Below, in pieces: positions 1 through 16,646 of a stretch of DNA of 20,744 nucleotides. A program made the position numbers and the translations under genes. The first letter of the stretch is position 1, and each line of letters opens with the position of its first letter. Source of the DNA: Myxococcota bacterium (GTDB taxonomy: Bacteria; Myxococcota; XYA12-FULL-58-9; JALHOP01); assembly GCA_041288095.1 (NCBI GenBank), contig JBGGMJ010000074.1:1-20744 (forward strand), in the 5' to 3' direction. The notes under the pieces were generated by a model. That model saw nothing but the letters and a program-made list of their open reading frames with translations. It did not search any database and had not been told where the DNA came from.

Positions 1-636
1 GCCCTTCAAGCGGCCCCAGAAGGTGATGCTGAACGCGGAGACGTCCGCCCAAAGCCTGTTGATGAGGTTCAGCACCGAATAGACGAGGCCGACGAAGAAG
101 CCGACGAAGACCATCTTCGCCTGCGTGCCGCCCTGCTCACCGACGATGAGCACGTCGGCACAAGCAGTGCCTTCGGGATAGGTGAGCTTGCCGTGCTCCT
201 TGACGATGAGCCCGTGGCGCAGCGGAATCATCATGAGCACGCCGATGAGGCCGCCGAGCATGGCGACCAGCATGATGCGCGAAGCTTCGAGGTCCCCGCC
301 CATGATCAGCAGCGACGGCAACGTGAAGGCGACGCCCGCGGCGAGCGACTCACCCGCCGACCCGGCGGTCTGCACGATGTTGTTCTCGAGGATGGTCGCG
401 GGCTTCAAGCCAATCGCCTTGGCGAGCCAACGGAACAGCGTGATCGAGAGAACCGCGACCGGAATCGAGGCCGAGACCGTGAGGCCAACCTTCAAGCCCA
501 GGTACACCGACGATGCCGCGAAGATGACGCCGAGGAGCGACCCGATGATCAGCGCGCGGACCGTCAGCTCGGTGACGTTTTGTTCAGGAGCAATAAAAGG
601 CTTGAAGCCTTCGCCACCTTCGGAGTGTGATCCCAT
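1..636 (-). CDS. OPT family oligopeptide transporter, N-terminal part (runs off the left edge; not in the ORF track)
   Basis: Manual translation from ATG 636: [64 protein letters not shown]...[24 protein letters not shown]...LMMIPLR...[13 protein letters not shown]. ELTxRA, YLGLKxG, ENNIVQT and YPEGTA are OPT-family motifs. The frame is open to position 1. Confidence 0.93.
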
Positions 637-767
637 GTGGGTGTCGGACTGAGTCTGGTGTGCGGCCACGTTGACTCCAAACACATTGATAAGGTGCGGT
701 GAGCCGGTAGCACGGTCACGAACGATTTGGCTAGCCCTGTCATCGTCTAGTTGGCATGACCCCGCCG

Positions 768-2639
<1,872 letters not shown>

Positions 2640-2656
2640 TCTAAACGTCTCGCGTA

Positions 2657-2686
2657 TTGCCGTGACGCAGGGTCCATTCTTAGGTT
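2657..2686 (+). promoter_or_regulatory. possible sigma70-type promoter for the kinase-transporter-Omp85 unit
   Basis: TTGCCG (2657-2662), 18 nt spacer, TAGGTT (2681-2686), in the 64-nt gap before ATG 2704. Weak match only. Confidence 0.25.
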
Positions 2687-2703
2687 ACGGCTTAGGCCTT
2701 CGG

Positions 2704-4035
2704 ATGACCCAAAATCCCCGCGAAGTGCATTTCATTCCAACGCACGGCACGGTGACGCACGCCGTGAACGCGGAAGTGCGCGACGACGTGCGCCCGGAGA
2801 TGATGGTCCGCCGCGGCCAGCGTATCGGTCGCCTCGCCATCGCCGGCTTGTGCTTGTGGGTCGCGTCGCTCGTCTTGGCCCTGGTCACCCTGAACCTCCA
2901 CGGCCTCGTGCTCAACTGGACGCACACCTTGGCCATCGCCACCGGCACCCTGGCGCTCGTGCTCATGGGCGTCTCCGTGCGCAACCTCTACACGCTGGTG
3001 TCGACCATCCGTGGCTCGGCCAACATGGGCAGCTACAACCTCGAGCGCCTCCTCGGCAAAGGCGGCATGGGCGAGGTCTGGAGCGCCAAGCACCGTCTGC
3101 TCGCGCGGCCAGCCGCCGTGAAGCTCATCAAGGCTCAGGCCATGGGCGCCGGCAGCGGCTCGAGCTCCGACGTCGCGACGGCGCGCGTTCGCTTCGCACG
3201 CGAAGCTCAAGCCATCGCCCGCCTCTCGTCGCCGCACACCGTGCAGCTGTTCGACTTCGGCATCGCGGACTCCGGTGACTTTTACTACGTCATGGAGCTG
3301 CTCAACGGCTTCACCATGGAGCAAATGGTCGAGCGCTACGGTCAGGTCGACCCGGCGCGCGTCATCTACCTCATCGTGCAAGCCGCCGAGTCGCTCGCCG
3401 AGGCACACCAGGCGGGTCTCGTGCATCGCGACGTCAAGCCGGCGAACATTTTCGTGTGCCGCTACGGCATGCGCTACGACTTCGTGAAGGTCTTGGACTT
3501 CGGGTTGGTGAAGGACCGCACCCGCGAGCTGACCGCTCAAACGGTCACGACCGACGGCACCATCACCGGCACACCTGCTTACATGGCTCCCGAGATCGCG
3601 CTCGGCAAGATCAACATCGACGCGCGGGCCGACATCTACTCGCTCGGGTGCGTCGCCTTCTGGCTGCTCACCGGCAAGAATCTGTTCGAAGGCGACACCG
3701 TGATGGAAGTGCTGGTGCGCCACGTCAACGCCAAGCCGCCGTCCATCAGGGACCACGTCGAGGTGGAGATGCCTGCGGGCCTCGAGGATGCGATCTTGCG
3801 CACCCTCGCCAAGGATCCCGACGACCGCCCGCAAACCATGGACGAGCTCATCCACGAGCTCTTGTCCGTCAAAGTGGACGCCCCGTGGAACTTCGCGCGT
3901 GCCCGCCGCTGGTGGGAAGCGCATGTCCCGGAAGTGCCCACGGTCTCCGCGACCGGGGCCGACAGTGCGGTGCGTGACCGAGCCGTCGATGAAGCCGTCG
4001 CGGCCGCGGCCGCGGTGAGCAGTGAGCGGCGATGA
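2704..4035 (+). CDS. Hanks-type Ser/Thr protein kinase with two N-terminal transmembrane helices
   Basis: All motifs intact: GKGGMG, AAVK, FAREA, HRDVKPAN, DFG, GTPAYMAPE, DIYSLG. Two hydrophobic stretches precede the kinase domain. ATG 2704 chosen because the ORF-track start (2548) lies inside the peptidase gene. Confidence 0.95.
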   Translation: MTQNPREVHFIPTHGTVTHAVNAEVRDDVRPEMMVRRGQRIGRLAIAGLCLWVASLVLALVTLNLHGLVLNWTHTLAIATGTLALVLMGVSVRNLYTLVSTIRGSANMGSYNLERLLGKGGMGEVWSAKHRLLARPAAVKLIKAQAMGAGSGSSSDVATARVRFAREAQAIARLSSPHTVQLFDFGIADSGDFYYVMELLNGFTMEQMVERYGQVDPARVIYLIVQAAESLAEAHQAGLVHRDVKPANIFVCRYGMRYDFVKVLDFGLVKDRTRELTAQTVTTDGTITGTPAYMAPEIALGKINIDARADIYSLGCVAFWLLTGKNLFEGDTVMEVLVRHVNAKPPSIRDHVEVEMPAGLEDAILRTLAKDPDDRPQTMDELIHELLSVKVDAPWNFARARRWWEAHVPEVPTVSATGADSAVRDRAVDEAVAAAAAVSSERR

Positions 4036-6437
4036 GCTCTAGCGCGGAGACTTCCGCATCGCGGTCGGAAGGTAATCGCGCCGCCGCGCTGCTCGCGGCT
4101 TTCTGCGCCTTGGTGATGATCGCCTTCCAAACCGCGAGCAAGGTCATTCGCGATACACTCTTTTTCGAGAGCTTCGAAGTCACGGCGCTGCCGACCATCG
4201 TCATCTGTGCCGCCGTCGCGTCGGTCGCCTTCGCCATCCCCGCGGGTCGCGTGATTCGCGTGCTGTCGCCGGCCCGGATTATCCCCCTCGGCTTCCTGAT
4301 TTCGGCCGGCCTGCTTATGGCCGAGTGGACCTTCCGCTATACGGCGCCGAAGGTGACCGCTATCGCGCTCTACCTGCATTTCGCGGCGCTAGGCGCCGTG
4401 CTCATCTCCGGCTTCTGGTCGCTGGTCAACGAGCGCTTCGACGCGCACACCGCGAAGATGTACGTCAGCCGTATCGCCGGCGGCGCGACCCTGGGCGGCC
4501 TCATCGGTGGTGTCGTCGCCGAGCGTCTTTCGGGCGTCCTCGACGCCGCGTCCGTCATCCCGGTACTCGCGGCGTTTCACGCGGCCTGCGCCGTGCTCAC
4601 CTTCATCATCAGCCGCCATCACAAGCGCAAGGTCGCTGGGCCGGCGCCCACGGGCGACAAGACGGACAGCAAACAAGAGCCACGCCCCGCCGAGGAAAGC
4701 CGCGACGACGGCAAGGGTGAGTCGATGCTCTCGGGCCTCGGCATCGTCTTGCGCGTGAAATACCTGCGCAACCTCGCCGCCATGGTGCTCCTGACCACGA
4801 CGGCGGCCGGCGTGCTCGACTACGTGTTCAAGGCGGCGGTCGTCGCCGAATACGTCGAGAAGGCGGAGCGGCAGCGCTTCTTCGCCATCTTCTACACCAG
4901 CTCCTCGCTCGCGACATTCCTGCTCCAAGCGCTGCTCGGCTCGCGCATGCTGCACCGCTTCGGTATCGCCGTGACCATGGGCACGCTGCCGGTCATCTCT
5001 GGGATCGGCGCCGTCTTGAACTTCGTCTTCCCGGGCGTCTGGACCGCGACAGTGCTGCGCGGCGGTGAGCTCGCGCTGCACAGCTCCCTGTTCCGAGCGG
5101 GCTACGAGCAGCACTACACGCCGATTCCTCCGCGCGAGAAGCGGCCAGCCAAGTCCGTGAACGACGTCGTCGTCGACCGCACCGGTGACGCGCTCGGCGG
5201 CGGCATCATCTCGGGCCTCTTGGCCGTATCCGCCGCCATGAACTTGAAAGTGGCGATGCTGCTCGTCGGCGTCACCATCGTCCTGTACGTCATAGCGATC
5301 ATCATCACGAGTCGCCTGCGGGCCGGCTACGTGGAGGCCATCGAGAAGGGCTTGGTCGACCGAGCCTACGACCTCGAGACCGTCGACCCCCTGAGCGGCG
5401 CGCCGCTGAGCTTCGCGGGTTATGGCAACGACTCGCTCACCCATGCGGCCGTCGCCTCCGCCTCGAAGAGCGCCGTCAACATGTCGATGCATTCGCTGCA
5501 ATCGATCGCCCCCGTGCCTTCCTCGATGGCCCCGGGCGCGCCATTGGGCTCGGAGCACAACGCCGCGACGGACAACCTGGTGTCACTCACGGCCGACCTG
5601 CGCTCGCGCGACCCCGCGCGTGTGAAACGCGCCTTGAAGTGCTTTGGCTCGGTCGACCGTCCGCCCGTGCAAACAGCCGTGCCGCTCCTCGCCTGGGACG
5701 CGGTCGCGCCCCAGGTCGTCGCGGCGCTCCGCCCCCTCTGCAACCGTTACGTCGGCACCTTGGTCGATGCCCTCCTCGACGAAGACGAAGAGTTCACGGT
5801 GCGGCGCCGCGTGCCGCGTATCTTGGCCGCCGCGACTTCGCAGCGGGCCTTCGACGGCCTGACGCGCGCGCTCGCGGACAAGCGCTTCGAGATCCGCTAT
5901 CGCGCAGCAAACGCCCTCGTACGCATTCACGGCAAGAACCCGGAGGTCGAGGTCAACAAGGAGCGCATCTACGACGCCATCCGCGCCGCGGTGGCGAGCG
6001 ATGCCCGGCTGGTCGCAAGCCGCACCATCGTCGACCGACTGCCCGACACCGACGCGCCGCTTCTCGGCGAGGTCCTCGAGGAGCGGCTCGACCGCGGCCT
6101 CGAGCACGTCTTCACGCTGCTCTCCTTGGTGCTCGACTCGCAGCACGTCCGCATCGCCTTCCAGGGCATCCACACCAACGACCCATCGCTGCACGGCCTC
6201 GCGCTCGAGTACCTGGACAGCGTCCTCCCGGATGATCTGCGTGAGCCCGTATTGGCCCTCGTCGCCATCGACGAGGAAGCCAAGAAGAAGCCGCGTGGCC
6301 AGGTGAGCCGCGATCAACGCCAAGTCGTCGAGGACCTGCTGCGCTCGCGCGAGTCCATCGTCATGAATCTTACGGCGCTGAAGAAGACCTCGAAGCGCCG
6401 CGAGCCCGCCGAGGGCGAGACCTCCGAAAGCAAATAG
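4032..6437 (+). CDS. TLC/NTT-like (ATP/ADP translocase-related, MFS fold) transporter fused to a C-terminal HEAT-repeat-like domain
   Basis: About 12 hydrophobic segments with TLC-like motifs KVIRDTLFF, FWSLVNERFD..AK, GATLGGLIGG and YTPIPPREKRPAKSVND...RTGDALGG. Helical tail LLDEDEEFTVRRRVPRIL / LADKRFEIRYRAANAL resembles HEAT repeats. ATGA overlap with the kinase stop. Confidence 0.8.
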   Translation: MSSSAETSASRSEGNRAAALLAAFCALVMIAFQTASKVIRDTLFFESFEVTALPTIVICAAVASVAFAIPAGRVIRVLSPARIIPLGFLISAGLLMAEWTFRYTAPKVTAIALYLHFAALGAVLISGFWSLVNERFDAHTAKMYVSRIAGGATLGGLIGGVVAERLSGVLDAASVIPVLAAFHAACAVLTFIISRHHKRKVAGPAPTGDKTDSKQEPRPAEESRDDGKGESMLSGLGIVLRVKYLRNLAAMVLLTTTAAGVLDYVFKAAVVAEYVEKAERQRFFAIFYTSSSLATFLLQALLGSRMLHRFGIAVTMGTLPVISGIGAVLNFVFPGVWTATVLRGGELALHSSLFRAGYEQHYTPIPPREKRPAKSVNDVVVDRTGDALGGGIISGLLAVSAAMNLKVAMLLVGVTIVLYVIAIIITSRLRAGYVEAIEKGLVDRAYDLETVDPLSGAPLSFAGYGNDSLTHAAVASASKSAVNMSMHSLQSIAPVPSSMAPGAPLGSEHNAATDNLVSLTADLRSRDPARVKRALKCFGSVDRPPVQTAVPLLAWDAVAPQVVAALRPLCNRYVGTLVDALLDEDEEFTVRRRVPRILAAATSQRAFDGLTRALADKRFEIRYRAANALVRIHGKNPEVEVNKERIYDAIRAAVASDARLVASRTIVDRLPDTDAPLLGEVLEERLDRGLEHVFTLLSLVLDSQHVRIAFQGIHTNDPSLHGLALEYLDSVLPDDLREPVLALVAIDEEAKKKPRGQVSRDQRQVVEDLLRSRESIVMNLTALKKTSKRREPAEGETSESK

Positions 6438-6445
6438 GGACTAGC

Positions 6446-7984
6446 CTGACACCTTCCACACTGCTGCTGCTCGCCCTCGCCATTGCGCAGGCCGAGCCCG
6501 AAACACCGACCGCCGGAGCGGATACGTCCGCGCCCGCCGCGCAACAAGAGACGCCGCCCGCCGCCGAGCCGGCCGACGACGAGAGCATCTTATCGCCGCC
6601 GCGTGAGCCGAGCGCGGGTCCGCTCGAAGAACGGCGCGAAGTGCCCGATTACGACGGTCGCGAGGGTGAGTGGTCGCCATCGCCCGTGGTTTGGCCGGCC
6701 CGGCTCGTGCTCTTTCCCTTGTTTCTGGTCACCGAAGTCGGCTTACGCCAGCCCATCGGCTTCATCACCCGCGGCATCGACCGCTTCAACATCGCGACGC
6801 GCACGCGCGAAGCGCTCACGTTCCGCGACCACACCCTCGGGTTCTTTCCCACCATCACCATCGCCAACGGCATGCAGCCGGGCTTCGGCATTGCCGCTTT
6901 CGCGGACCGGCTCTTCGTCGACTGGCACTTCATGCGCGGCTCGGTGGTCACCGATTTCCAGCGCAACATCATCGCCAGCTTCTTGAACCGCTTCAACCTC
7001 GGGCGGGCCGCGGATCTCAACCTGCTGGCGAGCTACCAGCGCCGCAACGACCTCGTCTTCTACGGCACCGGCAGCGACACCGTGAGAGACGACCGCACGC
7101 GCTTCGAACGGCGCAAGCCCTTCATCGAGCTCGAGCTCGCGACGGGCTCCGGTCAGGTAGCCAGCGCCGCCGCCTCATCGAACGGTATCTCCTCCGGCGA
7201 CTTCGCGACTCTCGACACGGCGTTGCAGGCCTTGAGTCACTTCGGCGGCCGGTTGTCGATCGAGCTCTCCGACAACAACTTCGGCTGCACCACGCGGGCT
7301 CCCGATATTTGCGGCGACGACAGCGCCGAGGGCACCGGCGACGACCGCTACAGCCTCGGCCGCGACGGCGAAGCCGCTTACTTCACCAGCGGCTACGCGC
7401 TCATGCGCATCAAAGCGTTGATCTCCGCCGACACCCGCAAGGCCGGTCGTCCCAGCTCGACCGGGGTGCGCATCGACATCTTCGGCCGCTACGGCGAAGG
7501 CCTGGGAAGCCGCGCCGACGACGTTCGCTTCTTCCGCTATGGCGGTGAGCTCTCGGGCTTCTGGGACGTCACCGGCCACCGCCGGCGCGTCTTCGCGGCG
7601 CGTCTCTACGTGGAGCTGCTCGAGCGTGGCCGGAATCACGACGTGCCTTTCATGGAGCTCATCAATCTCGGCGGCCCAGAGGTCATGCGCGGCTTCCTAC
7701 GCGCCCGCTTCCAGGGTGAATCGGCGACGGTTGCGACCATCGACTACCGTTGGCCGATCTGGTCGTTCCTCGACGCCAACCTCTTCTACGAAATGGGCAA
7801 CGTCTGGGACCGCCACCTCGCGAACTTCGACGTCAAGAAGCTCCGTGGCGGCTATGGTCTCGCCTTGCGCACCAACAGCTCGCGGGATGCCTCGTTCCAG
7901 TTGCTCATCGCCGCCGGCACCAAGCAGTGGTCCGCCCAGCCGGACGAGTTCCGGTTCATGGCCGGCACCAACGTGGGGTTCTGA
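6446..7984 (+). CDS. Omp85 (BamA/TamA superfamily) outer-membrane beta-barrel without obvious POTRA domains; probable CTG start
   Basis: Loop-6 motif LGGPEVMRGF (MRGF at 7685-7696), amphipathic beta strands, LFYEMGNVW, GYGLALR and C-terminal Phe. The frame upstream of GTG 6641 encodes a signal peptide from CTG 6446, preceded by AGGGA (6436-6440). Confidence 0.82.
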   Translation: MTPSTLLLLALAIAQAEPETPTAGADTSAPAAQQETPPAAEPADDESILSPPREPSAGPLEERREVPDYDGREGEWSPSPVVWPARLVLFPLFLVTEVGLRQPIGFITRGIDRFNIATRTREALTFRDHTLGFFPTITIANGMQPGFGIAAFADRLFVDWHFMRGSVVTDFQRNIIASFLNRFNLGRAADLNLLASYQRRNDLVFYGTGSDTVRDDRTRFERRKPFIELELATGSGQVASAAASSNGISSGDFATLDTALQALSHFGGRLSIELSDNNFGCTTRAPDICGDDSAEGTGDDRYSLGRDGEAAYFTSGYALMRIKALISADTRKAGRPSSTGVRIDIFGRYGEGLGSRADDVRFFRYGGELSGFWDVTGHRRRVFAARLYVELLERGRNHDVPFMELINLGGPEVMRGFLRARFQGESATVATIDYRWPIWSFLDANLFYEMGNVWDRHLANFDVKKLRGGYGLALRTNSSRDASFQLLIAAGTKQWSAQPDEFRFMAGTNVGF

Positions 7985-7985
7985 C

Positions 7986-9605
7986 GTGAAGCGCATCGCC
8001 CTCCTCGCCCTGATCGCCACCGCCTGCGCCAGTCACCCCGGCGGCTGGAAGCCCGTACCGCTCGTCACCCAAGACGACGACCGCCACCCCATCAAAGAGC
8101 CGGATGAGTACTGGTCGTCCCTCTATTGGGACGGCGCCGACCAAATGGTCTTCTTGCCGATGCACCGCGCCCTCTTGGTCGACGTGGGCGGGCCGGCCGT
8201 CAACGTCAACGCCTACGGTGAAGTTCCCAACTCGAGCTGGTTCACCAACCGCATCGGCCGCACGCGCATCTCGCCGGAGCGCCTGGTGCGTGGGCCTTGC
8301 GCCGAGGATGACTACCTCTCGAGCGGGCCTTGGCTTGCCAAGAGCGGCAAGGTCGACGGCGCCAATCCCGGGTTCGTCATCGAAGACGCACAAACGCACA
8401 AGCGCTACGTGTTGAAGTTCGACAGCAAGACGCAGCCCGAACGCGCGAGCAGCGGCGACGTCATCGGCTCGAAGCTCTACTGGGCCTTCGGCGCCAGTGT
8501 CCCCTGCAACTTCGTCGTGACCTTCGACGCCTCGACGGTGCAGCTCGCACCGGATGCAACCCAAACCGATCGCTTCAACAACAAGGTGCCCCTCACCCAA
8601 CAAGACGTCGACCGCGCCATGCAATCCGCGGCGCGAACGCCGGACGGGAAGCTGCGCGCCTCGGCCTCGATGTTCGTCACCGGCAAGCCCATCGGCCCGT
8701 GGACTTATCAAGGCAAGCGCGGCGACGACCCCAACGATGCCTTCGACCACGAGGACCGCCGGGACCTACGTGGCGCCCGCTTGATGGCCGCCTGGACCCA
8801 ACACTTCGACGCGCGCGAGCAAAACACGCTCTCGACCTTCATGAAGGCCGGCGACGGCGAGCTCGGTTGGGTCGAGCACTGGACCATCGACTTCGGCGAT
8901 ACCCTGGGGAGCTTGTGGGCCGCGGACGACATGTCGCGACGCTTCGGGCACTCTTACTACTTCGACTTCGCCGACGTGTTCTCCGACCTCTTCACGTTGG
9001 GCTTCCGGAAGCGCCCCTGGGAACAGGTGCAAAAGGATCCGAAGGCCGAAATCTGGGGTTACTACGAGCACGAGAACTTCGAGCCCGAGGATTGGAAAGG
9101 CGGCTATCAGAACATCGCCTTCATCCGCATGGACGACGCGGATGCCTATTGGGCAGCGCACATCATCTCGCGCTTCACCGATGCGCACATCGACGCCCTG
9201 GTCGCCGCCGCTCAGCTCTCGAAGCGCGAGTATGGCGAACGCCTGCGCGAAGTCCTCATCCAGCGCCGCAACCGCATCGTCGACCGCTACATGTCCCCGA
9301 TGGCCTCGTTCGAAAACCCGGTGCTCGACGACTCACGCCTGTGCTTCGAAGACGCGATGGTGACCGCCGGCCGGCTGCCCACCAGCGGTCAGCGCTACGA
9401 GACGCGGTTCGACGATGGCCCTTGGGTCGCCGTGTCCGCCGAAGCGAACGGCAAGGTATGCACTGCTCTCGAGGCCGGCGCGTCCCGGGTCGAAGCCCGC
9501 ATCACACGGCCCGGCGCCGACGAGCCGACAGCCCCTGTCGCGTTCCACCTCCATCGCGAAGGTAGCGCCACCAAGCTCATCGGCATCGAGCGCAAAACAC
9601 CTTGA
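7986..9605 (+). CDS. hypothetical lipoprotein with atypical protein-kinase-like (HipA/PI3K-like) motifs
   Basis: GTG start 1 nt after the Omp85 stop. Signal MKRIALLALIATAC. Motifs in kinase order: GKVDGANPGF, YVLKFD (K144), HFDAREQN (D275/N280), IDFG (D302). The ORF-track extension to 7539 overlaps the Omp85 gene. Confidence 0.75.
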   Translation: MKRIALLALIATACASHPGGWKPVPLVTQDDDRHPIKEPDEYWSSLYWDGADQMVFLPMHRALLVDVGGPAVNVNAYGEVPNSSWFTNRIGRTRISPERLVRGPCAEDDYLSSGPWLAKSGKVDGANPGFVIEDAQTHKRYVLKFDSKTQPERASSGDVIGSKLYWAFGASVPCNFVVTFDASTVQLAPDATQTDRFNNKVPLTQQDVDRAMQSAARTPDGKLRASASMFVTGKPIGPWTYQGKRGDDPNDAFDHEDRRDLRGARLMAAWTQHFDAREQNTLSTFMKAGDGELGWVEHWTIDFGDTLGSLWAADDMSRRFGHSYYFDFADVFSDLFTLGFRKRPWEQVQKDPKAEIWGYYEHENFEPEDWKGGYQNIAFIRMDDADAYWAAHIISRFTDAHIDALVAAAQLSKREYGERLREVLIQRRNRIVDRYMSPMASFENPVLDDSRLCFEDAMVTAGRLPTSGQRYETRFDDGPWVAVSAEANGKVCTALEAGASRVEARITRPGADEPTAPVAFHLHREGSATKLIGIERKTP

Positions 9606-9606
9606 G

Positions 9607-11229
9607 CTACAAGCGCACGTAGCGCGCCGCGACGTGTCGAGAAAACGCGGGGCTCACGAGGTGCAAGCCGTCGAGGCTTGCCACGACCTCGGTGTCGACG
9701 AGACGCGCGCCCGAGACATCGTCCACCCAGGTGACGCGATAGCGGCCGCCGCTGATCTGCGGCAAGCGAACCTCGACACCGCGCTTGGTGTCGCCGTTCG
9801 CGAGGAGCCAAACCGCGCCGCTGGAGCCATCCGCCGCGGCAAGCTGCCACACCTGCGCCCCGCCGGCGACTTCGGCGTCGAAACGGGGCGCCGCCCAGCC
9901 CTTCGGTAGCGCCTCGAGGAAGTCACGCAGCACCTTGAAGTGCATGGCGCGGCTGCGTGTCATCGGTTGATCGGAGTCGACGTTGAAGACCGGCGCCGTG
10001 TGCGACAAGACACCGGCGCCCGAGAAGATGGCGCTCCACAGACCAACGTGCGTGTGCTCGTGCGTCGCGTGGTCTTCACCCCCGTAACCGAACTCACCGC
10101 AGAGCACGGGCCTGTCGTATTCCCAGACCTCGCGCACGCGCCGGGTCATCTCGATGGCGAGGTTTGCCGGCTCGTAGAACGGCTCTCCGTAGAGATGCCA
10201 CTGCACGATGTCGTTCTCGCGCGCCTGATACCAAGCCCGCTCGTCGGCGCCGCCGATGTTCGACGACAGGCCGACCGGGCCCACCGTAATCATGTGGTCA
10301 CGCCCGTCGTGTGTCTGCGCGAAGCGCGCGAGCTCTCGCGCCCAGGGCACCCACTCGCCCTCCGGGATGGGCCCGTCCCACTCGGGCTCGTTCAAGAGGT
10401 CGACCGCCAACAGCTGCGGCGAGTAACCCCAGCGCGCCAGCACGTAACGCAAGCGCTCCGCCGCGTGTGCGCGCGCCGTCTTGTCCGTGAAGAAGTCCTG
10501 CGGCTTTTCGGCCGGCCCGCCGCGCTCCTTGCTGTAGGGATTGTCGTGCCAGCTCTTCCAAGTTTCGCCTTCGGTGAAGCCGACCGCGAAGAGCGTGAGA
10601 ATCACGTGCACGTCGTTCTCCTCGGCGGCCCGCATGATGGCGTCGAAGCGGCGCGCCGTCGCGGAGTCGAACTGACCGAGCTTGGTCTCGAGCGCGCCGA
10701 GCTGAACACCGCCTTCACACTCCTCGCATTCGGTGTCCGTGAAAACGAACACTCGAAGCGTCGTCATGCCGTAGCTCGCCATGCGTGCCACGTACTCCGG
10801 ACCACCCAGCGCCTCGACGTTCCAGCTGGGGTCGTAAACGTTGATGCGGTTCTCGCCGAGCATGAAAAACGTCGATCCATCCTCGCGCACCAAGCGGCGC
10901 GGCTCTTTCGGATCGCGTTTCACCGGCCCCGAACGCGACGAGGGCGACGCGACGAAGCCGCCGCGCAAAACGTCCGTGTCGCCACGGCGGACGACGAAGG
11001 TGTGGTCGCCCAGCTCCCGCGGAGCGAGACGCACGAAGGTGTCATTCCCTTCGTCGTAGCTCTCGACGCGCACCGACGCGCCGCTCGGAGTCCAGACCTC
11101 GGCCACCGCCGGTTCGGCGCCCGCTCGGCGCGGCATGCGCAGCTGCAACATGCCGTAGCGCTCGACCTGCCCGTACTCGCGCGACGGAACACACGCCCCG
11201 ACCGCCAAGATCAACAAGACACAACGCAT
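9607..11229 (-). CDS. clan GH-A (GH5-like) glycoside hydrolase, predicted lipoprotein
   Basis: Signal MRCVLLILAVGAC. Acid/base motif LLNEP (E281), WHLY, nucleophile motif LCGEFGY (E379), and YVLARWGYSP. Small N- and C-terminal beta domains. ATG 11229 is 2 nt past the upstream gene's stop. Confidence 0.8.
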   Translation of the reverse strand: MRCVLLILAVGACVPSREYGQVERYGMLQLRMPRRAGAEPAVAEVWTPSGASVRVESYDEGNDTFVRLAPRELGDHTFVVRRGDTDVLRGGFVASPSSRSGPVKRDPKEPRRLVREDGSTFFMLGENRINVYDPSWNVEALGGPEYVARMASYGMTTLRVFVFTDTECEECEGGVQLGALETKLGQFDSATARRFDAIMRAAEENDVHVILTLFAVGFTEGETWKSWHDNPYSKERGGPAEKPQDFFTDKTARAHAAERLRYVLARWGYSPQLLAVDLLNEPEWDGPIPEGEWVPWARELARFAQTHDGRDHMITVGPVGLSSNIGGADERAWYQARENDIVQWHLYGEPFYEPANLAIEMTRRVREVWEYDRPVLCGEFGYGGEDHATHEHTHVGLWSAIFSGAGVLSHTAPVFNVDSDQPMTRSRAMHFKVLRDFLEALPKGWAAPRFDAEVAGGAQVWQLAAADGSSGAVWLLANGDTKRGVEVRLPQISGGRYRVTWVDDVSGARLVDTEVVASLDGLHLVSPAFSRHVAARYVRL

Positions 11230-11231
11230 CG

Positions 11232-12332
11232 CTAACCTTGAAGAGATTCGTGGATGGCGAGGAGCTCGTCGACGCGATGAGCACACGTATGGCGCTCTTG
11301 CACCGTCGCCCTGCCTCGGGTCGCCAACGCCGCGGCCATATCGGTGTCCGAAAGCAGGTCGCGCAGGTGGCGCATCATGGCGCGCGTGTCCTCGGCGACC
11401 AGGTAGTCCTTGCCGGGGGTGAAGAGGCCCTCGGTGTCGTCCCACGGCCCGCTGATCACCGGGATACCGCAAGCAAGCGCCTCGAAGAGACGCCCTTTCG
11501 GCACGCCGGGAATCGGCTGCGATGGCGGCACGTAGACGGTGGCATAATGCTGCGCATAGGACTCCGGCAACGCGTAGCCCGGCACCCAACCGCGATAGCG
11601 GATATCCGCGGCCAAGAGCTCATCAGCGAGCTTCGCTGGGTATCCCGCGCCGCAGACATCCGCATCAAGCCCCAGCTGTTTGATGGGCTCGATGACGAGC
11701 TCGTGAATGGCGGCATCACGGTTGGCGTCGTTCGCCCAGTTACCCACATAAACGAGGTCGCGCTTCATCATTTCGCCGGTCGTCGTCCGCGAGAGCAGCG
11801 GCTTGAAGATGCGCACGTCGGCGGCTTCGTGCCAGGTCCACGCCGCCTTCGCCCACCCGTGTTTTTCGTGTGCGACGCGCAAAGCTTCGCCGGTCGCGAG
11901 CACGCCGTCATACTCAGACAGGTCGAAGTCGCTCATGCTTGCCGGGTTGGTCAACGCGCGGTGATGGGTGTCGTGAAAGTACGCGCGCATGAAATGGCTG
12001 GTCTTGCGCTTCTCACCCACGCGCTTGATCAGCTCGGGTTCGTTCCACTGGTGCACCAAGACGAGGTCCGCGTCCTTGAGAGCGACATCGACGTCGAGCG
12101 TCGTCGGCATGTAGCGGATGATGTCGAGCGCTGGGTAGAGCCGCAGCACCGCCTCGATGGGATGGGGACCAGCCGCCTTCATTAGACCTTCGACGCTACG
12201 GCTGTTTCGAGGCTCGTAGCAGACGACCCGATGGCCGCGCGCCGCGAGCTCGGTCACCACTCCACGCAGAAAATGCGCACCGTCGTTGTGCCAATCGGAC
12301 AACAACGAGTGAACGAACAGGACGACACGCAT
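11232..12332 (-). CDS. CgeB/YkvP-family GT-B glycosyltransferase
   Basis: N-terminal HSLLSDWHNDGAHFLRG, plus FHDTHHR, WHEAAD, DLVYVGNW, RLFEALACGIPVIS and HTCAHRVDEL, typical of CgeB-family proteins. Confidence 0.88.
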   Translation of the reverse strand: MRVVLFVHSLLSDWHNDGAHFLRGVVTELAARGHRVVCYEPRNSRSVEGLMKAAGPHPIEAVLRLYPALDIIRYMPTTLDVDVALKDADLVLVHQWNEPELIKRVGEKRKTSHFMRAYFHDTHHRALTNPASMSDFDLSEYDGVLATGEALRVAHEKHGWAKAAWTWHEAADVRIFKPLLSRTTTGEMMKRDLVYVGNWANDANRDAAIHELVIEPIKQLGLDADVCGAGYPAKLADELLAADIRYRGWVPGYALPESYAQHYATVYVPPSQPIPGVPKGRLFEALACGIPVISGPWDDTEGLFTPGKDYLVAEDTRAMMRHLRDLLSDTDMAAALATRGRATVQERHTCAHRVDELLAIHESLQG

Positions 12333-12384
12333 GGCGCAGCTACCATCGCCGCGCGGGTCACGCCGGGCAAGACGTCGGCGAGAC

Positions 12385-13038
12385 TTAGTTCAATGCCGCG
12401 TGGCGGGCGCGCCAGACCTCGATGGCCCAGGCGTCGCTCTCGATGTAGTCCCGGGCGATCACTGCCGTGGGCTTGGCCACGGCTTCCTCGTGCGCGATGA
12501 CGCTTCGCAGCTCCCGCACCATGGTCGCGAGCTCGACATCGTCGCCGCTGGCGTTGGCGCTTTGCGGTTTTTTTACGCCGAGGCCGAGCATCGAGCGGAC
12601 GCCGGCATCGACGTCGCGGGCAAGCTCGTCGCGTTTCGCCGAAACATCGAACGCGAGGCGGTGACTGATGCTGCCGTCACGGACATCGATCATGCGGAGG
12701 GCCACGGCGACGAGCTCACCCCGCTTGGCGACCTCGCCGATGACCACGAAATCGACTTGCAGGAGCCGACCCAAGCGCGCGGCACACCGCTGTTGCGGAC
12801 ATGCCGAGCTCGGGCTCACGTTCTGCATGGCGCGAACGACGTCAGAGCGAACCAAGCGAAACAGTCCGCTGGTCTCGAAGCTGCTGCGAACCTCGGAGGC
12901 GATGGCGTCGCGTGTCGGCGCCAGCTCTTCGGAGGCGGCGATGCCGGAGATGGCGATGCGCGGCGCCGGGGCGCCCTGGGCAACGGCCACGGGGGCGAGA
13001 ATGCTGATGAAAGCCAAAAGTACTGATGCGCTACGCAC
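12385..13038 (-). CDS. secreted hypothetical protein, possible CsgG/LpoB/TolB-N-like alpha/beta domain
   Basis: GTG start with GAGGTG upstream. Signal peptide ends AVA-Q. Pattern CPQQRCAARLGRLLQVDFVVIGEV...LRMIDVRDG resembles CsgG/LpoB-like folds. Confidence 0.65.
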   Translation of the reverse strand: MRSASVLLAFISILAPVAVAQGAPAPRIAISGIAASEELAPTRDAIASEVRSSFETSGLFRLVRSDVVRAMQNVSPSSACPQQRCAARLGRLLQVDFVVIGEVAKRGELVAVALRMIDVRDGSISHRLAFDVSAKRDELARDVDAGVRSMLGLGVKKPQSANASGDDVELATMVRELRSVIAHEEAVAKPTAVIARDYIESDAWAIEVWRARHAALN

Positions 13039-13078
13039 GGATACACCTCGGACTTAGCGTCTTGGCGGTCTACGAGAG

Positions 13079-13105
13079 TTATCGGCCCGTCACGGCCGAA
13101 GTTGC
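13079..13105 (-). promoter_or_regulatory. sigma28 (FliA/SigD)-type promoter
   Basis: Minus strand reads GCAA-N15-GCCGATAA: exact -10 octamer (13079-13086) and canonical spacing relative to TAAA-N15-GCCGATAA. Intergenic, 40 nt upstream of GTG 13038. Confidence 0.7.
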
Positions 13106-13117
13106 TCCGCCAGCGCG

Positions 13118-14554
13118 TCAGAACAGGACGATTCCGTCTTCGGGGGCCGCTGGCGCCTCGGAAAGCTGCTTTTGCACGAAGCGCGATTCCGCCGCGGCGA
13201 TGGTCTTGGCTGCGCGGTTGTCGACCCGTCGCGCCAGCACCTGACCAGTCTCCGTGAACATACAAACGTCGAGCGGCGCCTGCCCGCCCAGCAAATGGGC
13301 CGTGAGCGGGATGTTCTCGGTGGCGAGGAACTCGCGGATGAAGGCGATGTTCTTGGCCGGGACGCTCGAGCTCATGGTGTCGAGCACGTGCGCGCCGCCG
13401 AAGATCTTTGCCTGCAGGCGGTCACGATGCCCGCCTTGTCGCATGATGGCGTTGATGAGGAGCTCCATGGCGTGGACACCGAACCGCGCCGAGGTCGGCT
13501 CGTCGTCCCGTCCGGCGGGCAGCAAGAAGTGGTTCATGCCGCCGACCTTGGCGACGGGATCGTACAAGCAGGCGGCGATGCACGAGCCCAGGAGCGTGCG
13601 GATCGCGGTCGGCTTCTTGGTGGCAAACACCTGGCCGACGGTAATGCGACGCGCCGTATGCATCGCCTCGGAGGTCTTCGTCCAAGGCCGCTGACGCGGA
13701 CGCGGCTCCGGGTCACCCGCCTGGCGCACGTAGTACGTCGTCCCGACGCCGTGCCGGAACAGGTGCGGCATCCAATGCAGAGTCTCCGAATGGCCGAGGA
13801 TCAGCGGCGCGCCCGGCTCGAGCAGCGTCGCGAAGCGTTCGAAGAGCGAGCCCTGTGACTGCTGATCGAAGTAGATAACGACATTGCGGCAGAAGATGGC
13901 GTCGAAGCGTGTGCGCACCGGCCAACTCGCCTGGTGGAGATTGATCCGCCGCGCCACGACCATGTCGCGCAGTGCTTGAATGACGCGCAGGCGCCCGTCG
14001 GCCAGCTCTTCGAAATAGTGGTGACGCAGGTTCATCGGGATCGGCGCCACCGCTTCAGCGGAGTAGACACCGGCCGTAGCTTGCCCCAGCACCTCGGTGT
14101 CGACGTCGGACGCGAGGATACGCACGTCCCAGGTCTCGGGCCGCGGGAGCGAGGCGTGCAGCATCATGGCGATCGAATAGGGCTCTTCGCCGCTCGAGCA
14201 GCCAGCGCTCCAGATGCGAACGCGACGGCTGCCGGTGGCCTCGGCTCTGCGCACCAAGGCGGGTACGATTTCGCGCGCCAGTAGGTCGAAGTGATGCGGC
14301 TCGCGGAAGAACGACGTCTTGTTGGTCGTGACCGCGTTGATGAGGTGCTCGAGCTCTTCGTGATGCTGACGAACGTATGCGTAGTATTCGTCGTAGCCGC
14401 GCAGCATGAGTCGCCGCAGCCGCCGTTGGAGGCGGGCCGCCAAGAAGTTCTTCTTGCCGTCGTTGAGGACGATGCCGGTCTCGGCGGCGATGAGGTCGCG
14501 AAGGGCATGGAACGCCGCCGGGCCAAGCACGCGCTCTGGTACGGGGTCGCTCAC
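13118..14554 (-). CDS. cheR-cheD: CheR methyltransferase-CheD deamidase fusion
   Basis: CheR motifs TTNKTSFFRE, IWSAGCSSGEEPYS, IFCRNVVIYF and LGHSE. In the same frame, CheD motifs TLLGSC (C325), GGMNHFLLP (H342) and AKIFGGA. Confidence 0.93.
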   Translation of the reverse strand: MSDPVPERVLGPAAFHALRDLIAAETGIVLNDGKKNFLAARLQRRLRRLMLRGYDEYYAYVRQHHEELEHLINAVTTNKTSFFREPHHFDLLAREIVPALVRRAEATGSRRVRIWSAGCSSGEEPYSIAMMLHASLPRPETWDVRILASDVDTEVLGQATAGVYSAEAVAPIPMNLRHHYFEELADGRLRVIQALRDMVVARRINLHQASWPVRTRFDAIFCRNVVIYFDQQSQGSLFERFATLLEPGAPLILGHSETLHWMPHLFRHGVGTTYYVRQAGDPEPRPRQRPWTKTSEAMHTARRITVGQVFATKKPTAIRTLLGSCIAACLYDPVAKVGGMNHFLLPAGRDDEPTSARFGVHAMELLINAIMRQGGHRDRLQAKIFGGAHVLDTMSSSVPAKNIAFIREFLATENIPLTAHLLGGQAPLDVCMFTETGQVLARRVDNRAAKTIAAAESRFVQKQLSEAPAAPEDGIVLF

Positions 14555-15003
14555 GCCATGTTGCCCACGACGTCGACGTCCACGAGCCCGAAGAGCCGAT
14601 CATCGACGCGCGCGATTGCGGACAAGAATGCTTGTTCGGGTGCCATACCCGTCTCGGGAGGAGGCGTGACGGCCTCGGGTGCGATCTGGAGCACGTCGGA
14701 GACCGCGTCGACGATGAAGCCGACCGTCTTGCTCTTCAAGGCGACCAAAATGATCACAGTGAGCGGTGTGCACGCGGCGGCGGACAAGCCGAAGCGCACC
14801 CGCAGATCCACGACCGGCACGACCGCTCCACGCAGATTCATGACTCCTTTGATGTGCGGCGCCGCGTTCGGAATCGGGGTGATCGACGTGTAGCACTTGA
14901 TCTCCTGCACCCGTAGGATCTCGATGGCGTACTCTTCCTTGCCTACGACGAACGACAACACCTGCACGGGTGCCGACGCGGCTACTTGCATTTCCGTGTT
15001 CAT
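14551..15003 (-). CDS. cheW: chemotaxis coupling protein CheW
   Basis: EYAIEILRVQEI, ITPIPNAAPHIKGVMNLRGAVVPVVDLR, GFIVDAVSDV. 4-nt overlaps with both neighbours. Confidence 0.96.
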   Translation of the reverse strand: MNTEMQVAASAPVQVLSFVVGKEEYAIEILRVQEIKCYTSITPIPNAAPHIKGVMNLRGAVVPVVDLRVRFGLSAAACTPLTVIILVALKSKTVGFIVDAVSDVLQIAPEAVTPPPETGMAPEQAFLSAIARVDDRLFGLVDVDVVGNMA

Positions 15004-16646
15004 GCTTCTGCCCGCCCACGCACCAAGCTCGGTGCATCGAGAATCAACGCGACACGTCCGTCGCCCATCACCGTGGCGCCCATGATGCCGTCGACGCGCT
15101 GAAAGTTGGTATCGAGACTCTTCACGACGACCTGTTGCTCACCGAGCAGGTCGTCGACCTGGAGCGCAACGCGACGCCCTTCGTTCTCGATGATCACGAG
15201 AATCGACTCGCACGGATCACTCGCGCGAGGCGGCTGCGCGAAGAGTTGATGCAGGCGCAAGATTGGCAGGACCTGACCGCGCAACATCAGGACGTCGCCG
15301 CGACCGAGCACCGACTTCACGTCCTCGCGTCGCGGGCGCAGCGACTCAACGATCGACAGGACAGGCAGCACGTAGGTCTGCGCGCCGACCGAAAGAGACA
15401 TGCCGGAGAGCATCGCCAAGGTGAGCGGGAGCTTGATGCGCGTCGTCGTGCCGAGACCGGTCTCGCTGCTGACGGCGACGCTGCCACCGAGCGATTCGAC
15501 GATGCGCTTGACCACATCCATTCCGACGCCGCGGCCGGAGATCGTGCTCACGGCGTCAGCGGTGGAAAACCCAGGCGCGAAGATCAGGGCTTCGAGCTCC
15601 GCGCGACTCGGCTGGTCCTGCGCGCCGAGCATACCGCGCTCGATAGCGCGTTGGCGAACCTTGTCATGGTCGATGCCGCGTCCGTCATCGCGAACCTCGA
15701 TGAGCACACTGCCTCCATGCGCCTTGGCCGAGATGCGGATCTTGCCAGTCTCGACCTTCCCGGCCGCGACGCGCGCCGGTGGCGGCTCGATGCCGTGATC
15801 GATGGCGTTCCGCACCAGATGCGTCAGTGGATCGGCGAGCCGCTCGACCAAGCTCTTGTCTAGCTCGGTCTGATCGCCGTCGAGCTCGAGCGCGATCTTC
15901 TTGCCGCTCGCCGCGGCGAGGTCACGAACGAGCCGGGGAAAGCGACCGAGGACGACACCCACCGGGACCATGCGCACGCCCATGCAGTGCTCTTGCAGCT
16001 CGCGCATGCTGCGCTCGACATGACCAGCCGCTTCGCGAACCTGATGCGAAGCCCCTGCCCCTTCGCGCCGCAGCACTTCGTTGAGCATCGACTGGGCGAT
16101 CACGAGCTCGCCCACCAGGTCGACGAGCTGATCGAGCTTGATGGACGACACACGCAGAGTCGAGACATCGACCGACACATCCGCCGCAGCGGACCTTTCG
16201 GCGTCGCCGGCGACAGGCGCGTCGAACAGCTCGAAGCCTTGGTCGTTGGTGCCGGTGTCGGCTGGCGCCTCCAGGAAGGCACCCAGCGCCTGGGCCACCT
16301 CCAGCGTGTGCGCGTGAGGCTCGCCGTTGTCACGCGCCACCGCGACCAGCGCCTTGAGCACATCGACCGCGCGCAAGGCGACCCCCACGAGATCGGGCGT
16401 CACCGGCAGCACACTTGCCCGTACGCGCTCGAGGACGCTCTCGAGCGTGTGCGTGAAGCTCTCGATGGCATCGAACCCGAAGCTGCCGCTCGCGCCCTTC
16501 AGTGAGTGCGCAGCCCGGAAGATGGCGCCAACCACGGCGTCAGACGAGTCGCTCTCGAGCTTCAGGACGTTGCTCTCGAGCTCCTCGAGCCGCTCTGCCG
16601 CTTCCTCGAAGAAGACGGCGCGAAACTGCCTGAGATCGTCTTCCAT
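15000..16646 (-). CDS. cheA: chemotaxis histidine kinase CheA (short, apparently lacking P2)
   Basis: HPt FRAAHSLKG, dimerisation LVDLVGELVI, HATPase HLVRNAIDHG / DDGRGID / GFST / SGRGVGMDVV, and a C-terminal CheW-like domain ending GATVMGDGRVALILD. Confidence 0.97.
   Translation of the reverse strand: MEDDLRQFRAVFFEEAAERLEELESNVLKLESDSSDAVVGAIFRAAHSLKGASGSFGFDAIESFTHTLESVLERVRASVLPVTPDLVGVALRAVDVLKALVAVARDNGEPHAHTLEVAQALGAFLEAPADTGTNDQGFELFDAPVAGDAERSAAADVSVDVSTLRVSSIKLDQLVDLVGELVIAQSMLNEVLRREGAGASHQVREAAGHVERSMRELQEHCMGVRMVPVGVVLGRFPRLVRDLAAASGKKIALELDGDQTELDKSLVERLADPLTHLVRNAIDHGIEPPPARVAAGKVETGKIRISAKAHGGSVLIEVRDDGRGIDHDKVRQRAIERGMLGAQDQPSRAELEALIFAPGFSTADAVSTISGRGVGMDVVKRIVESLGGSVAVSSETGLGTTTRIKLPLTLAMLSGMSLSVGAQTYVLPVLSIVESLRPRREDVKSVLGRGDVLMLRGQVLPILRLHQLFAQPPRASDPCESILVIIENEGRRVALQVDDLLGEQQVVVKSLDTNFQRVDGIMGATVMGDGRVALILDAPSLVRGRAEA

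Follow-up and report, generated by a model that had tools for sequence, protein, structure and literature searches.

A putative exported lipoprotein with a predicted atypical kinase fold, encoded together with a POTRA-less Omp85 barrel in Myxococcota

The gene at 7986..9605 on the forward strand of the window (the whole stretch of DNA that was analysed, 20,744 nt) encodes a lipoprotein that, at odds we put at roughly 0.6, probably works in the periplasm as a nucleotide-dependent phosphotransferase, sits docked to a POTRA-less Omp85 barrel and in many genomes receives its nucleotide from a carrier. The fold, the conservation of residues, the export signals, the linkage between genes and the predicted complex of lipoprotein and barrel were all computed. 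On the strength of the modelled fold, the lipoprotein would add a new sequence family to the exported atypical kinases.

Gene arrangement and reading frame

Four genes run head to tail on the forward strand, and within this run the first 4 nt of the carrier gene (TLC-HEAT) are shared with the end of the Ser/Thr kinase gene. The stop of the barrel gene sits 1 nt ahead of the GTG of the lipoprotein gene, which is translationally coupled to it. A scan of positions 1-12500 for promoters and terminators gave no signal above that of shuffled sequences. The features of the four genes and of the lipoprotein are as follows.

2548..4035, + strand: Hanks-type Ser/Thr kinase (cytoplasmic), the first gene of the four-gene run; Pfam Pkinase, E 2.8e-39
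4032..6437, + strand: TLC/NTT nucleotide-carrier domain of the ATP/ADP transporter family in fusion with HEAT repeats, 801 aa; Pfam TLC (PF03219), 47.2 bits against a cut-off of 21; HEAT_2
6446..7984, + strand: POTRA-less (noNterm-type) Omp85 barrel gene; Pfam Omp85, E 3.5e-16, 60 bits against a cut-off of 24
7986..9605, + strand: coding sequence of the kinase-fold lipoprotein, 539 aa, GTG start, TGA stop, stop-free frame
7986..8027, + strand: signal peptide and lipobox, VKRIALLALIATA-C14, read from sequence; codon of C14 at 8025-8027
8028..8297, + strand: conserved N-terminal extension, residues 15-104, with the motif NVNA..EVP.SSWF.NR, of which S83, W85 and R89 are at least 97% conserved
8298..9299, + strand: predicted atypical kinase core, residues ~105-438
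8343..8375, + strand: Gly-containing loop SGKVDGANPGF, S120-F130, between β1 and β2, assigned from conservation and the strands of the model
8415..8417, + strand: putative β3 lysine K144 in YVLKFD (141-146), within strand 140-145
8457..8459, + strand: putative αC acidic residue D158, within helix 153-168
8802..8825, + strand: putative catalytic loop HFDAREQN, H273-N280, with D275 and N280; conserved in relatives
8889..8897, + strand: DFG with D302 (IDFG, 301-304); conserved in relatives
9300..9578, + strand: C-terminal Ig/FN3-like β-sandwich, residues 439-531, with the pair C453/C492

In the alignment, the GTG start position of the lipoprotein matches the Met start of its homologues, in which a signal peptide comes next. 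A longer open reading frame of 688 aa that opens at 7539 was rejected as an artefact, because its first 149 residues are the barrel gene read out of frame and the homologues begin at the position of the GTG. For the barrel gene, the first canonical start codon lies at 6641, and a conserved CTG at 6446 precedes a signal-peptide-like stretch; the gene likely starts at this CTG.

An earlier note, made from this DNA, had picked out the Gly-containing loop, the β3 lysine, the catalytic loop, the DFG and the lipobox cysteine C14, and translation of 7986-9605 with codon arithmetic placed every one of them where it had been claimed to lie. The partner barrel, the nucleotide carriers and the PAP2 link did not figure in that note.

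Conservation of the predicted active site

We aligned 250 full-length relatives that share 30-84% identity with the query (median 40%). The four residues that had been put forward as catalytic, K144, D275, N280 and D302, were kept in 244, 247, 247 and 250 of these relatives, respectively, in the test of invariance that the earlier note had proposed. Their surroundings were conserved as well, with H298 kept in 249, F303 in 222 and G304 in 225 of the 250, and with the loop residues K122, G125 and G129 kept in 238, 243 and 241. At a level of 97% or more, only 25 of the 539 positions were conserved, including all four predicted catalytic residues, and simple arithmetic puts the chance that four named residues would all fall among those 25 positions at ~4e-6.

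For the αC acid, two candidates had been offered, of which D158 stood (Asp in 170 and Glu in 64 of the 250 relatives, one or the other in 234) and E152 fell, being dropped as not conserved in the homologues. Swapping between D and E, as seen at D158, is the usual behaviour of an αC acid. A paralogue in the same genome (C182), only 34% identical, also keeps K144, D158, D275, N280 and D302.

These counts weigh against the possibility that the protein is a pseudokinase or nucleotide sensor, a periplasmic subunit without catalysis that would gate the barrel, or serve as its scaffold, on nucleotide binding. Such a role, which we judge to be quite unlikely, would suit the tight binding to the barrel predicted by the complex model, the scarcity of ATP in the periplasm, and the presence of Fam20A, itself a pseudokinase, among the structural matches. 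Pseudokinases, however, usually lose at least one of the lysine, the catalytic aspartate and the DFG aspartate, and here all three are kept in 244-250 of the 250 relatives and in the divergent paralogue.

Conservation also extended past the kinase motifs. A near-invariant stretch comprising D248, D251, H255, R258, R259 and R262 lies immediately N-terminal to the helix preceding the catalytic loop, and R224, S228, D386, W389 and R427 were likewise near-invariant among the 250 relatives. With these residues counted in, the active region would exceed the kinase motifs both in size and in basic character.

Predicted fold of the core

The AF2 model of the lipoprotein, built from a 43-sequence alignment, reached a pLDDT of 91.7 and a pTM of 0.91. 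Secondary structure assigned by DSSP runs through the N-lobe as β1 (116-122), the Gly loop, β2 (129-134), β3 (140-145, with K144) and a helix (153-168, with D158), and continues with two strands, an insertion, a helix (259-271), the loop of D275 and N280, a hairpin (281-300) and D302-F-G. In the model, this order of elements is the canonical kinase order. That K144, D275, N280 and D302 would meet in a single pocket is predicted from this order of secondary structure and not from measured distances.

Foldseek placed Fam20C, Fam20A and CtkA at the top of the structural matches, nine of which had E<=0.001, and the strong neighbours of the model were confined to HipA, PI4K, CotH, Fam20, CtkA and similar kinases. 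The bilobal kinase fold proposed in the earlier note was thus recovered by AF2 and Foldseek through these neighbours, but not by hhalign against 17 HipA_C proteins from genomes of the phylum, which returned a probability of 0.6%. Two marks of the PKL superfamily are found in the protein, namely a bilobal fold in the model and a lysine, αC acid, D-x4-N and DFG aspartate that are conserved and in order, and assignment of the core as an atypical PKL domain of the Fam20/CotH/CtkA/PI4KII/HipA structural class is supported by the modelling.

The kinase fold is established by structure only, and a fold does not fix chemistry. SelO nucleotidylates and SidJ ligates an amino acid, and both are precedents with the PKL fold. 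By the same token the lipoprotein might carry out AMPylation or nucleotidylation, amino-acid ligation or ATP hydrolysis, or use a donor other than ATP, and the near-invariant D248, D251, H255, R258, R259, R262, R224, D386, W389 and R427 suggest a specialised site of some kind. We nevertheless consider a different chemistry unlikely, given that the K, D-x4-N and DFG with kinase-like spacing are the phosphotransfer signature of the nearest structural neighbours, and that no SelO-like or SidJ-like chain appears among the structural matches listed.

A family without an annotation model

Searches of Pfam and NCBIfam with the lipoprotein gave zero matches, and no model covers the family. When 43 members of the alignment were searched against Pfam at E<=10, the PI3/PI4 kinase (PF00454) and CotH (PF08757) families were absent, the Fam20 profile (PF06702) matched none of the 43 members nor the query, and HipA_2 appeared in only two of the 43 with an E of 0.039, below any cut-off (HipA being represented in Pfam by PF07804 and PF20613). 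Searches of PDB sequences with phmmer and two family profiles found no related protein, with only chance matches to a HEPN toxin (E 0.21), an armadillo design (E 0.28) and an AAA ATPase (E 0.63). A Fam20C profile run against 151 genomes of the phylum found nothing, although the controls were equally silent and the blank accordingly says little. In the Atlas, the nearest named cluster to the family had a score of only 0.79, with Fam20C present in 11% of the cluster's members. The relation of the family to kinases is invisible to sequence methods and rests on predicted structure.

The family itself is large. Of 8000 candidates from a word-indexed protein search, 1212 were relatives at E<=1e-3, and no precomputed Pfam domain was attached to any of these; an exhaustive HMMER search gave 2338 cluster representatives at E<=1e-3, of which 621 reached E<=1e-30. 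Since the family has no Pfam or NCBIfam model, genome annotation calls its members hypothetical; the guess that the protein would be so annotated proved right for every relative whose database name was seen, bar one, which bore the automatic Atlas cluster label 'Lipoprotein family protein'.

Relatives were encoded in 298 of 368 pattern-matched stretches from species-representative genomes, and thus in 298 species-level genomes. The best 80 of these 298 loci came nearly all from Myxococcota, Polyangia, Bradymonadia or Deltaproteobacteria, as titled in the records, and the Atlas also holds clusters in which Acidobacteriota is the commonest phylum. Even sampling of the phylum found the family in 25 of 121 genomes, with one to four matches apiece.

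Export

At the lipobox column of the alignment, a cysteine corresponding to C14 was present in 207 of the 250 relatives and a strict lipobox pattern in 171, which upholds the reading of an SPII signal in the earlier note as far as sequence can. The signals of the relatives were mostly L-[AT]-[AG]-C lipoboxes, and some were SPI-like. Two cysteine pairs varied together across the 250 relatives: C105 and C174 were both present in 168, both missing in 80 and single in 2, and the corresponding counts for C453 and C492 were 165, 68 and 17. Since the two pairs co-vary as disulfides would, they argue for an oxidising, extracytoplasmic location. Taken from sequence, export of the lipoprotein is supported, and the protein would be anchored in the outer membrane.

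It would be highly improbable, in our opinion, that the protein stays in the cytoplasm as an enzyme and that its N-terminus only looks like the signal of a lipoprotein. With 13 residues the signal is short, and the lipobox, ATAC, departs from the textbook L-A-G-C, but the signals of homologues are either canonical L-[AT]-[AG]-C lipoboxes or SPI-like, and both the co-varying cysteine pairs and the coupling of the gene to that of an outer-membrane barrel speak against a cytoplasmic location. Two relatives (P0272 and P0273) begin without a signal peptide and carry a fused GT4 domain of cytoplasmic type, and so not every member of the family need be exported.

The partner barrel

The AF2 model of the upstream gene product has 16 strands preceded only by helices at residues 15-59, with no POTRA domains, and its structural matches were TamA and BamA barrels (best E 1.7e-14). 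As modelled, it is a 16-stranded barrel without POTRA, which is what defines a noNterm Omp85 protein.

Association of the two genes was common among the best 80 of the 298 loci. A barrel homologue lay directly upstream on the same strand in 66, and of the other 14 loci, 6 had it elsewhere in the locus, 6 had none that was found and 2 offered no room upstream. The pair of barrel and lipoprotein has also been duplicated as a unit, both in this genome and on the contig of L001/L013. Natural fusions point the same way, with one protein (P0149) joining the kinase-fold protein to an Omp85 domain and another (P0174) joining the barrel's N-terminal PDYDGR...W.PRV motif to the kinase-fold region.

To these linkages we can add a model of the complex, computed from paired alignments, in which barrel and lipoprotein reached an ipSAE of 0.72 (0.73, 0.68 and 0.72 in separate runs) against 0.00 for the best of three controls. 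The ipSAE mark was reached by 58 of 80 solved pairs versus 2 of 110 mismatched pairs, a calibration that holds roughly for custom alignments. At least 91% of the contacts were shared between runs, and the pLDDT of the partners was at least 87. On the side of the barrel, the predicted contacts involve the N-terminal helices (1-48) and residues 313-316, 369-381 and 412-413, with the contact turns following strands 10, 12 and 14 and all being periplasmic by strand parity. On the side of the lipoprotein they involve residues 19-81, through which the N-terminal extension (15-104) is predicted to touch the N-terminal helices of the barrel, together with residues 313-346. Invariant residues at the predicted interface include Y369, P372, W374 and D378 of the barrel and D334 and G339 of the lipoprotein. 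The lipoprotein is predicted by this model to sit under the barrel, on its periplasmic face.

Nucleotide carriers, PAP2 enzymes and other neighbours

The flanks of the best 80 of the 298 loci, 1.10 Mb in total, were searched for TLC genes with an HMM built from 11 seeds. This search found 54 TLC-family open reading frames in 38 of the 80 loci, within 300 nt of the pair of barrel and lipoprotein in 32 loci, and no TLC gene in the flanks of the other 42. All ten adjacent transporters that were scanned scored above the Pfam TLC cut-off, and the carriers next to the pair were either TLC-HEAT proteins of 750-945 aa or TLC-only proteins of 440-520 aa. In 25 sampled genomes that bear the family, the TLC background was at most ~0.68 matches/Mb (119 in ~175 Mb), from which ~0.75 would be expected in 1.10 Mb against the 54 observed, a rough comparison in that the background counts matches and not genes and that the relatives are not independent. 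Across the phylum TLC genes are common, with 100 of the 121 sampled genomes carrying them against 25 with the lipoprotein family, which means that the link concerns particular paralogues and not the whole TLC family. The linkage hints at ATP-driven chemistry outside the cytoplasm.

Other neighbours recurred less often among the same 80 loci. An open reading frame in the cluster of the Hanks-type kinase was present in 22, a cNMP-binding one in 14 and one of the PAP2 superfamily in 14, and five of the PAP2 frames were directly downstream on the same strand. One relative of the lipoprotein (P0134) is itself fused to a PAP2 domain. PAP2 enzymes take lipid phosphates as substrates, with a site that faces the periplasm. 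Because they act on lipid phosphates, a lipid or lipid-linked substrate is our best guess for the lipoprotein, although only a guess. Longer fused forms were found in only four proteins at E<=1e-10 (one with DUF4114/MopE, one with an AMP-binding domain and two with GT4); these are few and mixed, and some may be merged gene calls.

The same carriers could instead work inward, in a scheme of nucleotide scavenging: nucleotides from outside, such as those of lysed prey, would enter through the barrel, be captured or converted by the lipoprotein and be imported by the TLC carrier. Polyangia and Bradymonadia are groups known as predators, and it is in genomes of these types that the family occurs; TLC genes are linked to the pair in the 38 loci noted above. 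All characterised NTTs are importers of parasites and plastids, according to the available text of the NTT study (PMC5381601). We give scavenging low odds all the same, as a role in binding or shuttling needs no invariant catalytic Asp, Asn and DFG, and PAP2 and cNMP-binding partners fit regulation or phospho-cycling better than uptake. Nor are BamA/TamA-type barrels known to act as open solute channels.

Proposed mechanism

The phosphotransferase reading assembles these observations as follows. The lipoprotein would be made together with the POTRA-less Omp85 barrel and would dock on the periplasmic face of the barrel. It would bring a full catalytic set, comprising the β3 lysine K144, the αC acid D158, the catalytic D275, N280 and the metal-binding D302, and ATP-dependent phosphoryl transfer onto an envelope substrate would be the most likely mechanism. 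In many genomes, the linked TLC/NTT antiporters would swap cytoplasmic ATP for periplasmic ADP across the inner membrane. The many invariant arginines, together with the recurrent PAP2 partner, suggest that the substrate is anionic or lipid-linked. Catalysis, ATP as the donor, the direction of transport by the carrier and the nature of the substrate are the parts of this scheme that we infer from the computed evidence.

Against the scheme stand the general view that the periplasm lacks ATP, the 42 loci with no TLC gene in their flanks and the commonness of TLC genes in genomes that do not have the family. A wider proposal, which we offer as tentative, is that some diderms run an extracytoplasmic ATP economy, in which an NTT exports ATP and retrieves ADP, the docked kinase phosphorylates a lipid, glycan or protein of the envelope, and PAP2 enzymes reverse the modification or relay the phosphate. 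This reading at the level of the system would be categorically new if a periplasmic supply of ATP is real. The periplasm is normally treated as ATP-free, with the power for envelope processes thought to come from the inner membrane. The narrower phosphotransferase reading, if true, would offer a testable example of phosphorylation that depends on nucleotide and takes place beyond the bacterial cytoplasm.

Comparison with known systems

No description of the family or of the module was found in the literature searched, and the available part of a 2026 preprint on new PKL families of the oral microbiome does not cover the lipoprotein family. A close published arrangement is that of the noNterm Omp85 proteins of Leptospira, which share with this locus a POTRA-less barrel and a lipoprotein gene immediately downstream (PMC11358297, in the text available). 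The downstream lipoproteins of Leptospira carry Big/integrin or DUF1566 domains, and the words 'kinase' and 'nucleotide' have no occurrences in the available text of that paper (PMC11358297). NTT-HEAT fusions, for their part, are described as widespread and uncharacterised in free-living bacteria, often with a cNMP-binding gene coming after them (PMC5381601, available text), and the present loci share with them the upstream TLC and HEAT gene and the cNMP-binding reading frame found in 14 of the 80 loci. In the available text of PMC5381601 these carriers are not tied to an exported kinase or an Omp85 barrel, and 'export' does not occur. If the proposed mechanism is true, two orphan groups, the NTT-HEAT carriers of free-living bacteria and the POTRA-less Omp85 barrels, would for the first time be placed in a functional setting.

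Among kinases with related predicted structure, the HipA and HipT toxin kinases differ in that HipA is cytoplasmic and paired with an antitoxin, whereas the present protein is, by its signals and gene linkage, exported and paired with a barrel. The lipid kinases PI4KII-α and Legionella MavQ and LepB are cytosolic, and the lipoprotein has no PF00454 match; the spacing from the loop Asn to the DFG Asp is 22 residues here versus 12 in L083, the best of four hits to the PI3/4K-type pattern D-R-H-x-x-N ... I-D-[FH]-G (range 10-13). With CtkA (the secreted kinase of Helicobacter pylori), CotH (the spore-coat kinase) and actin-fragmin kinase, no relation was detected at the level of sequence, and none of the three is known to be a lipoprotein or to have an Omp85 partner.

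The kinases of the secretory pathway, Fam20C (the Golgi casein kinase), Fam20B and Fam20A, are a further point of comparison. The lipoprotein has no match to the Pfam Fam20C family, and it differs from these enzymes as a bacterial lipoprotein with a predicted docking site on an Omp85 barrel and an extra Ig-like domain. Should the tentative ATP economy prove true, it would overturn the working rule that there is no ATP-driven enzymology in the periplasm, and it would stand as a bacterial counterpart of the ATP import and Fam20 system of the ER and Golgi.

Translation start of the Omp85 barrel gene

Upstream of the kinase-fold lipoprotein gene, with positions 6434-6640 of the window examined, the earliest ATG, GTG or TTG codon of the Omp85 barrel gene was found at 6641, a start that would leave the protein no signal peptide. 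In frame and 5' of this codon lies a signal-like stretch, LTPSTLLLLALAIAQA|EPE, whose first codon is a CTG at 6446 preceded by AGGGA. The three closest genomes (L001-L003) retain this CTG as well as AGG(G)A, and remoter Omp85 homologues begin with Met followed by a signal peptide. The barrel gene is probably translated from the non-canonical CTG start at 6446.

Genes flanking the module

The following lie ahead of the TLC-HEAT gene, which encodes a fusion of nucleotide carrier and HEAT repeats:

756-2639, + strand, full-length peptidase M2 of the angiotensin-converting-enzyme type (Pfam E 6.9e-224, 5-581 of 581 covered)
2548-4035, + strand, Hanks-type Ser/Thr kinase (4 nt shared between its stop and the TLC-HEAT start)

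The peptidase gene is also kept in L001 and L002. Ser/Thr kinases with 41-52% identity to the Hanks-type kinase occur within the module at loci L010, L012, L020, L075, and L076, and an ORF cluster of this sort was present in 22 of the 80 related loci. The Hanks-type kinase may regulate the TLC-HEAT carrier from the cytoplasmic side.

Beyond the lipoprotein gene, the following were found on the opposite strand:

9607-12332, - strand, two genes convergent with the lipoprotein gene, GH5 then GT1
12385-16646, - strand, DUF3280/TolB_N-like protein, CheR-CheD fusion, and CheA-type kinase, in this order

The GH5 cellulase-family ORF ends 1 nt past the lipoprotein gene stop, contains an internal lipoprotein-like start (MRCVLLILAVGAC), and is full length in L001 only, with short fragments in L002 and L003. 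The second convergent gene, a GT1-family glycosyltransferase, is unchanged in position in L001-L003. Fusions to a GT4 domain were seen in two distant relatives of the lipoprotein (P0272 and P0273), both lacking a signal peptide.

The region 12385-16646 is a chemosensory cluster, in which the CheR-CheD fusion protein is 478 AA long and the CheA-type kinase carries a CheW domain; a tie between this cluster and the module was not evident.

Second pair and companion genes

The source genome holds a divergent second pair:

L111 (contig C182 of genome G000), 6849-8930, barrel and kinase-fold pair, 34% identity

It lacks the C105/C174 cysteine pair, and no TLC gene was found in the initial 20 kb of its contig; the genome carries its other TLC gene at one end of contig C103.

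At 14 of the 80 loci the module has a PAP2-superfamily gene in its company:

L062, 9681-10562, PAP2-superfamily gene (also L009, L022, L075, L076, and 9 more loci)

Genes for cNMP-binding proteins likewise stand alongside the module at 14/80 loci, and a single relative of the lipoprotein, P0134, carries a fused PAP2 domain.
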